Assembly (NCBI GenBank): GCA_964016885.1
Contig: OZ024743.1
Coordinates: 70,680,001-70,744,000 of the forward strand
DNA length: 64,000 bases
Reading direction: 5' to 3'
Origin: Eledone cirrhosa
Taxonomy: Eukaryota
The notes under the pieces are model-generated. The model was not told the origin of the DNA. It did not search any database and saw nothing but the letters and a program-made list of their open reading frames with translations. The first letter of the stretch is position 1, and each line of letters opens with the position of its first letter. The translations under genes were made by a program, and so were the position numbers. Positions 15,382 through 15,980 of this stretch are shown here, piece after piece.

Positions 15382-15980
15382 AGAATAGAAATGGCTGTGT
15401 AGTTGCTATTTAAGGTAAATTAAAATGCAGTGGGAATACGAAGAAAGCAAGAATGGGGGAGGGGGGACTTTTCCTCATCAGTTGTCTACTAGGGGTCTCA
15501 GATATTTCTACACTTTAAAGACAAGATATCTCACCCCAGGGTGTCAATAACTGGATAAGTTATTGGGAAAACGGAGGAGGGAGGGAAGGAAAGCAAAAGG
15601 GAAGAAAAGAGAAAACAGTAAAAAAAAAACAGCGAAAAAAACAACAAACCGAGCAATGTGCGAGCAACTTCAGGTAAGGAAATCCAAGACCACTCGACAA
15701 GAGAACTTAAGTTCAAGACTGAGTAGTCAAGAGAAAAAGAGACACACGTCTGACCCAGCGAGTTGTAAGTGAGAAGAGAACTGCTAAAGGGTCAGGCGAG
15801 GGGGTGAATGTGAGAGGGAGAAAGGGAGAGGAAGAAAGTGGGGTAAGAGTAGATAGGGAGAAGTAGAGTGGAAGAAAGAGGGGTGAGAGTAGAAAGTAGC
15901 GAAATAGGTAGGTAGAAGGTGAGAGAAGAATGGTCACAGCGAAAACATGATGAAATGTATGGAGAATAAAAATGGCTGTG
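15382..15980 (-). mobile_element. ~580-bp element (family E) with terminal direct repeat and rearranged hammerhead
   Basis: GAATA(G/A)AAATGGCTGTGT occurs at both ends (15382, 15964), between microsatellites. Confidence 0.7.
15469..15571 (-). ncRNA. Non-circularly permuted hammerhead (family E)
   Basis: Minus strand: TTTTCC-CAATAACT..AGTTATTG-ACAC..GGGGT..AGATAT C^TTGTCT..GTGT a GAAATATCT..ACCCC..AGACAA-CTGATGA-GGAAAA. Confidence 0.8.

Follow-up and report, generated by a model that had tools for sequence, protein, structure and literature searches.

A predicted permuted hammerhead with a splinted stem II in a Penelope-like repeat of Eledone cirrhosa

The family E insertion and its predicted hammerhead

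The window, meaning the whole 64,000-nucleotide stretch of Eledone cirrhosa contig OZ024743.1 that was analyzed, contains on its minus strand a family E insertion (15381 to 15981) made up of one 581-nt noncoding unit and the last 20 nt of the preceding unit. The upstream copy of this 20-nt unit end lies at 15962 to 15981 (minus strand), with its first bases merging into flanking (CA)n. The 3' end of the element lies at 15381 to 15400 (minus strand), approximately 144 nt past a predicted cut, and is followed by (CT)n and (AT)n. The two copies of the direct repeat are alike at 19 of 20 positions and stand 581 nt apart. An earlier, sequence-only reading had proposed a unit of about 580 bp with a terminal direct repeat; the size agrees with the observed spacing, but the repeat is a head-to-tail partial-tandem junction. 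The insertion is a 5'-truncated partial tandem, the shortest kind seen.

The predicted hammerhead occupies 15571 to 15469 of the same strand. Read 5' to 3', it opens with the 5' strand of helix Pa (15566 to 15571), an 8-bp hairpin with a 5-nt loop (15545 to 15565), and the 5' strand of Pb, a pseudoknot (15541 to 15544). These are followed by the 5' strand of an extension helix (15534 to 15539), the nonbulged strand of a predicted K-turn (U3n, G2n, and A1n at 15531 to 15533), a stem III strand ending in U16.1 (block S; 15526 to 15530), and C17 (15525), with the predicted cut on its 3' side. Past the cut come a stem I strand, also a pseudoknot (15519 to 15524); a 5-nt linker from stem I to Pb (15514 to 15518); the 3' strand of Pb, standing in place of the block G stem II strand (15510 to 15513); A11.1 with G12-A13-A14-A15.1 (block G; 15505 to 15509); the rest of stem III with the 3-nt bulge and G1b-A2b-C3b of the predicted K-turn (15495 to 15504); and the 3' strand of the extension (15489 to 15494). 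The motif ends with the stem I strand preceding the core (15482 to 15487), the CUGAUGA core (block C; 15475 to 15481), and the 3' strand of Pa (15469 to 15474), which takes the place of the block C stem II strand and in many copies is eroded into adjoining poly-C.

Pa, the hairpin, Pb, the extension, stem III, and stem I all lie where the sequence-only reading had put them, and all six are perfect reverse complements. Its permuted hammerhead on the minus strand was likewise recovered, with a complete core in the order cleavage site, GAAA, CUGAUGA, as was its placement of the cut: with C17 at 15525, cleavage is predicted between 15525 and 15524. The hammerhead core letters CUGANGA, GAAA, and NUH are all present, and stems I and III flank the predicted cut, with A15.1-U16.1, as a hammerhead requires. 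Since the searches selected for the core letters, these cannot count as evidence. A descriptor that demanded nothing beyond the core, stem I, and stem III, arranged as S-G-C, matched the window 7 times, against a mean of 0.1 (maximum, 1) over 30 shuffles; because it did not require Pa, the hairpin, Pb, or the extension, the pairing of these four is noncircular evidence.

Rfam searches of the whole window and of the unit returned no hammerhead (the sole match in the unit was a snoRNA with an E value of 7.7), and the single-strand, nested folding z-score of the motif was unremarkable (−1.6). Both results are expected, since stem I and Pb are pseudoknots: they cross stem III and one another. Nested folding of one strand already yields Pa, the hairpin, and the extended stem III. 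A canonical type I, II, or III fold around the core was rejected, as stem II is impossible: the strands after A9 and before G12 form 0 direct pairs in the window copy.

The window copy departs from the family E majority at four motif positions (15542, 15512, 15500, and 15491), and public contigs carry the same majority letters at these sites. Pb reads ACGC/GCGT in the majority; the double change that the window copy carries there is CpG-type decay, not evidence. Only the change at 15500 gives stem III a sixth pair (15531-15500), and the 6-bp stem III proposed earlier follows from this difference between the window copy and the majority. The conserved register consists of a 5-bp stem III, the K-turn, and a 6-bp extension (15539 to 15534 with 15494 to 15489). 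The helix letters first given are thus exact complements in the window copy, but two of the pairings rest on copy-specific mutations.

The consensus of kink-turns places a 3-nt bulge and then tandem G.A and A.G pairs between two helices. Between stem III and the extension, a 3-nt bulge is followed by tandem G.A pairs (15533 to 15531 and 15500 to 15495), and this arrangement, with G1b.A1n and A2b.G2n, matches the K-turn consensus. It shares with box C/D-like kink-turns the bulge, the tandem G.A/A.G pairs, a pyrimidine mismatch, and two flanking helices, but it is placed inside an extended hammerhead stem III, and G2n is a U in some subfamilies. Across the 14 aligned rows described below, A1n is invariant, and G1b and A2b are each conserved in at least 90%. 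Other bulges replace the K-turn in family A and in cnidarian Naiads.

Covariation and the substitute for stem II

We aligned family E with 13 other copies chosen as subfamily representatives (14 rows). In the hairpin, Pb, extension, stem III, and stem I, 95.1% of the cells were paired (98.8% in stem I and 94.3% in stem III), and 19 of 29 pairs had changed on both sides. None of 500 shuffles reached the observed pairing, a count that is no probability because the rows were picked by hand and are related to one another (two of them somewhat decayed), and slid partners paired in only 30 to 43%. When Pa and 10.1-11.1 were added, using the 12 rows that share one register, 94.5% of the cells were paired and 21 of 35 pairs were double-changed. 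Aligned across subfamilies, the helices are kept, with compensatory change in each of them. Family E is colinear with the other subfamilies over the motif (74% mean column identity) and aligns weakly with them outside it (63 to 67%). It had been put forward as an independent instance of the fold; its colinearity instead makes it a diverged relative of its sisters, not an independent origin.

Direct pairing of the two stem II strands was found in only 35% of cells across 12 sister representatives, whereas Pa had 92% of its cells paired, with double changes at 2 of 5 pairs, and Pb had 100%, with double changes at 2 of 4. One position of Pa shows G-C, A-U, and U-A, and Pb shows both U-A and A-U. 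These data uphold the earlier suggestion that Pa and Pb together stand in for stem II. The splint strand Pa-hairpin-Pb would carry both stem II strands in a predicted four-way junction. Four arms (core, Pa, hairpin, and Pb) with 0 or 1 spare base per link are common to the motifs; at the family E locus the junction is of the G/A form, and two of its links lack spare bases. Taken as duplexes alone, Pb and Pa are weak (−1.9 and −3.9 kcal/mol, respectively).

The 10.1-11.1 pair had been described as not conserved. This is true of its identity, which covers four pair types, yet 9 of 12 sister representatives have a standard pair there, with 5 double changes. In family E, 10.1/11.1 is G/A in 40 of 46 parsed copies, and G10.1 pairs into Pa. 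The 3' strand of Pa retains all 6 pairs in 21 of 46 family E copies and at least 3 pairs in 41 of 46. The loss of Pa adjoins a poly-C run and recurs in every subfamily, which fits change after insertion. At family E loci, the poly-C after the core (15456 to 15474 in the window) repeatedly expands, replacing the A run of Pa.

Copies, insertions, and Naiad-type remnants

Counted as matches to partial patterns and not as full motifs, the 3' half of the family E motif had 716 exact matches in the 3.0-Gb host genome, against 0 for the reversed pattern (hence at least 716 copies), a family E 3' end pattern had 346 (control, 0), and a looser group-wide pattern had 19,380, against 54 in the control. 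A further pattern (84 versus 4) picked up older, diverse SGC-order sites. Family E is also multicopy in contigs from two sequencing runs of one sample. A blind 400-kb sample gave 6 descriptor matches, 5 of them family members in three loci, versus 0 to 3 in shuffles, numbers too few for a density estimate. A narrow, fixed-gap motif pattern had 0 matches in metagenome contigs, which does not imply absence, and 5 in viral contigs, none with stems I and III.

The window holds further SGC copies, with position C3 at +32164, +55217, +55923, +56544, −30226, −14138, and −13611; the family at 32164 has a 5-nt bulge where the K-turn stands, and the copy at 13611 has a broken GAAA. Several old SGC-order families with unrelated stem I sequences were seen among loci L191 to L220 and L251 to L266. 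Tandem arrays of 472 and 484 bp (553 to 3750, plus strand, and 16376 to 22152, minus strand) carry a canonical type I hammerhead, in 6 exact copies on the plus strand and 12 on the minus strand, with a palindromic CTAG stem III, a form that would cleave as a dimer. More CTGATGA sites (−31159, +25612, 39956 to 39977, and 10998 to 12136), with an apparent stem II or inverted arrangements, may belong to other Penelope-like fragments that carry hammerheads. Another element (57837 to 57984 and about 16178 to 16220), a long inverted repeat centered on (TA)n and weakly matching plant miRNA models, is probably a small DNA-transposon-like or fold-back repeat.

Family E insertions sit in (TA)n and have two fixed 3' ends, as the end about 144 nt past the predicted cut may or may not be followed by a short tail that runs into the next unit. 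Among 93 anchors, 31 had the tail, 26 ran into (AT)n and 8 into (CT)n, 12 were of other kinds, and 16 were internal. The window insertion resembles the 8 in that a (CT)n run (15344 to 15384) begins exactly at the element's 3' end; such runs could stem from reiterative copying by the reverse transcriptase (RT) or from target choice. The 5' ends vary, 31 of 89 insertions are longer than one unit, and inverted 5' copies occur. The downstream predicted site was read through in 77 of 83 insertions, and 0 of 89 had a 5' end within 2 nt of the predicted cut. Positions −8 to +22 of the upstream ribozyme held 11 of 18 second-pass 5' ends, versus 5 of 43 in the two preceding bins (P = 1.6 × 10^−4 by Fisher's test, with bins chosen after the data were seen). 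This pileup, which would suit templates starting at a cut, was not replicated in D-type families (3 of 21; 2 of 65 junctions at 0 and −1). Given that result and the lack of ends within 2 nt of the cut, we do not count it as a cleavage footprint; it could reflect AT-rich microhomology, a start site, or how a single source locus is shaped. Family E 5' ends also cluster just past one full unit (loci L267 to L356; 8 of 31 at +83 to +105, second pass), as if strand displacement or the template end limited a second round.

Partial tandems, inverted 5' copies, (TA)n targets, and an optional tail are given as hallmarks of Penelope-like elements, and of Naiads especially, in the sections covered of Craig et al. 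2021 (PMC8557442), and family E shows all four. The same sections report no canonical hammerhead in Naiads, with a half core in eight, and describe no permuted hammerhead; a Naiad without a hammerhead is used there to argue that ribozymes may merely parasitize Penelope-like elements. In the covered part of File S5 of that paper, several published Naiad consensi were seen by eye to carry, close to their 3' ends, the S-G-C order together with Pa, the hairpin, and Pb, namely, three Acropora records, Naiad-1 of Morbakka, Naiad_Obim, Naiad_Ovul, and one crustacean record; one of the consensi sharing the architecture is flagged HHR_half_core. The Acropora and Morbakka Naiads have no base to spare, 10.1 being paired within Pa and 11.1 within Pb, and the octopus Naiads share the architecture and the hairpin loop with family E (both by eye). 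Nematode Naiad records in File S5 have a different block order, and the architecture is therefore not in all Naiads. Family E thus resembles the Naiads of PMC8557442, as far as covered, in its insertion hallmarks and, for several consensi, in its 3' RNA architecture, but it is noncoding and only 581 nt long. Judged from sequence, the family E motif is likely the ribozyme that Naiads were reported to lack.

In the same genome, one decayed Naiad-type RT frame was found by motif, and 78 decayed matches to one Naiad-type remnant included no intact or long frame. A decayed older-family SGC-order motif lies downstream, on the same strand, in 3 of 21 Naiad-type RT remnants, a link that rests on BLAST; the relaxed SGC descriptor gave 0 matches downstream of the 21 on either strand. 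One old SGC-order family downstream of such remnants (L358, L462, and L469) may have a short direct stem II where family E has the splint. No Naiad-type remnant in this genome was linked to family E itself, so a Naiad helper for family E is putative. Broken Penelope-like RT frames of other clades were seen in the blind sample (L048:5760-8060, L070:4922-7348, and L134), and Pfam assigned no family above the cutoff to four Penelope-like frames.

Known hammerheads, mechanism, and alternatives

Non-LTR retrozymes were reportedly described by Cervera and de la Peña in 2020. Family E is like them in being nonautonomous, with noncoding tandem units of a few hundred bases, one hammerhead each, and Penelope-like ends, but non-LTR retrozymes carry type I hammerheads, whereas the order in family E is SGC. 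Type SGC is a noncircular permutation seen only in metatranscriptomes and cleaves in vitro at 0.007 to 0.19 per minute, according to the parts covered of Eckert et al. 2023 (PMC10085705). As presented there, type SGC (HRIMA-1 and variants) shares with family E the S-G-C order, the full core, crossing stems I and III, and a short linker from stem I to the block G strand (5 nt in family E and typically 3 nt in type SGC). It has a direct stem II, where family E has the Pa-hairpin-Pb splint, and it is known from metatranscriptomes, whereas family E sits in animal genome DNA (PMC10085705, parts covered). Eckert et al. also describe an interaction helix that links the other sides of stems I and II. 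In family E it would join the strand leading into stem I to what follows the core, but no such helix was found: the longest run of that strand is 3 to 4 bp with the 3' side versus 5 to 7 bp with the 5' extension. In its place, family E has the stem III extension behind the K-turn.

The retrozyme preprint of Li et al. (2026; 10.64898/2026.07.22.740005) uses, in the parts covered, type I descriptors only; these would miss family E because its order is SGC. Hammerhead variants with additional helices are mentioned without detail in the covered part of PMC13725137, and the sections covered of PMC10162972 held nothing relevant. In the literature searched, mostly outside subscription journals, we found no permuted hammerhead in an animal element and no splinted stem II. 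The earlier reading of a permuted hammerhead was right about the order but missed the published type SGC, the K-turn, and the Naiad link. We regard the motif as a covariation-supported new variant of the type-SGC hammerhead and, going by its sequence, as a predicted ribozyme that is probably the Naiads' own.

The explanation we favor, and consider likely, is that a multicopy, noncoding Penelope-like repeat carries a complete S-G-C hammerhead core, predicted to be self-cleaving, with a four-way junction for stem II, and that it is likely copied in trans by a Naiad RT. The tandem G.A pairs of the core would stack on Pa or Pb. The K-turn may fold back the extension helix, whose far end is joined to Pb as well as to stem I, so that this end would hold stem I beside the stem II substitute, like the loop I/loop II contacts of ordinary hammerheads. 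Cleavage after C17 would leave a 2',3'-cyclic phosphate, and multimeric transcripts would be cut into 581-nt monomers, which may circularize. Reverse transcription would begin downstream of the cut, at a distance of approximately 144 or 158 nt, and would mostly read through the cut site, with a Naiad RT mobilizing the repeat in trans. Mostly reading through implies that the template is mostly uncut or religated RNA and that the ribozyme is probably slow or protein-gated. In a Poseidon element, as described in the parts covered of PMC11167929, the RT initiates at two internal sites of the RNA, and these set the tail; uncut RNA serves as the chief template, and hammerhead cleavage depends on the protein. 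The two 3' ends of family E and its 77 of 83 read-through insertions match this mechanism.

Four other readings were weighed against this self-cleaving, splinted hammerhead. The most serious of them, though unlikely in our estimate, is that family E has a genuine fold but has lost cleavage and serves as a structured handle for a Naiad protein or rides as a passenger in the 3' end. The prevalent read-through (77 of 83), the G/A at 10.1/11.1, and the erosion of Pa all suit a noncleaving family E, as do two outside results in the source sections covered: hammerhead cleavage was dispensable for the insertion of a Poseidon element in vitro (PMC11167929), and 8 of 9 Xenopus retrozymes did not cleave (10.64898/2026.07.22.740005). 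However, every helix stays paired through subfamily-level changes, and Pa erosion recurs in every subfamily, as fits post-insertion change. Position 17 is C (65%) or A (30%) among 138 aligned pieces, and these are the two best cleavage letters at that position of the hammerhead. Less likely again is a motif that cleaves with a stem II of the single 10.1-11.1 pair, held by pseudoknots, with Pa and the hairpin accessory or regulatory. The standard pair in 9 of 12 sisters with its 5 double changes speaks for this, together with the older family at Naiad remnants, which lacks a clear Pa-hairpin-Pb module; but 10.1/11.1 is G/A or U/C in family E, in family A, and in the octopus Naiads, and Acropora and Morbakka show a perfect four-way junction by eye, with 10.1 into Pa and 11.1 into Pb (Naiad records as far as covered).

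Cleavage might instead occur only between molecules or neighboring units, with the splint acting in trans as in dimeric Penelope-like hammerheads. Such dimeric hammerheads of Penelope elements were reportedly described by Lünse in 2017. The occurrence of the element in tandems and the weakness of Pb and Pa as duplexes (−1.9 and −3.9 kcal/mol) would accord with cleavage in trans. We hold it to be improbable, as all partners lie within 103 nt, the motif has no palindromic stem, and the nested fold of a single strand already has Pa, the hairpin, and the extended stem III. Chance complementarity in a low-complexity repeat could appeal to the z-score of only −1.6 and to the missing Rfam match, but it is ruled out, to the point of being given next to no weight, by the covariation, the pattern counts (19,380 versus 54), and the descriptor shuffles (7 versus 0.1).

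We therefore return to the splinted, self-cleaving hammerhead as the preferred reading. We lean, with somewhat less assurance, toward a broader view in which the noncircularly permuted core, the four-way junction, and the K-turn make up a long-missed ribozyme of Naiads (in cnidarians, crustaceans, and molluscs) that drives its own class of nonautonomous retrozymes, numbering about 20,000 in a single animal genome. As current ribozyme descriptors and Rfam models miss this motif, surveys undercount it. The 103-nt motif, with its predicted cut and natural compensatory variants, makes the question directly testable. If the reading is true, noncircularly permuted hammerheads would no longer be confined to rare environmental RNAs but would occur in many copies in animal genomes; a splinted four-way junction would be able to break the rule that the core strand pairs directly into stem II; and Naiads could no longer be said to spread without a hammerhead.
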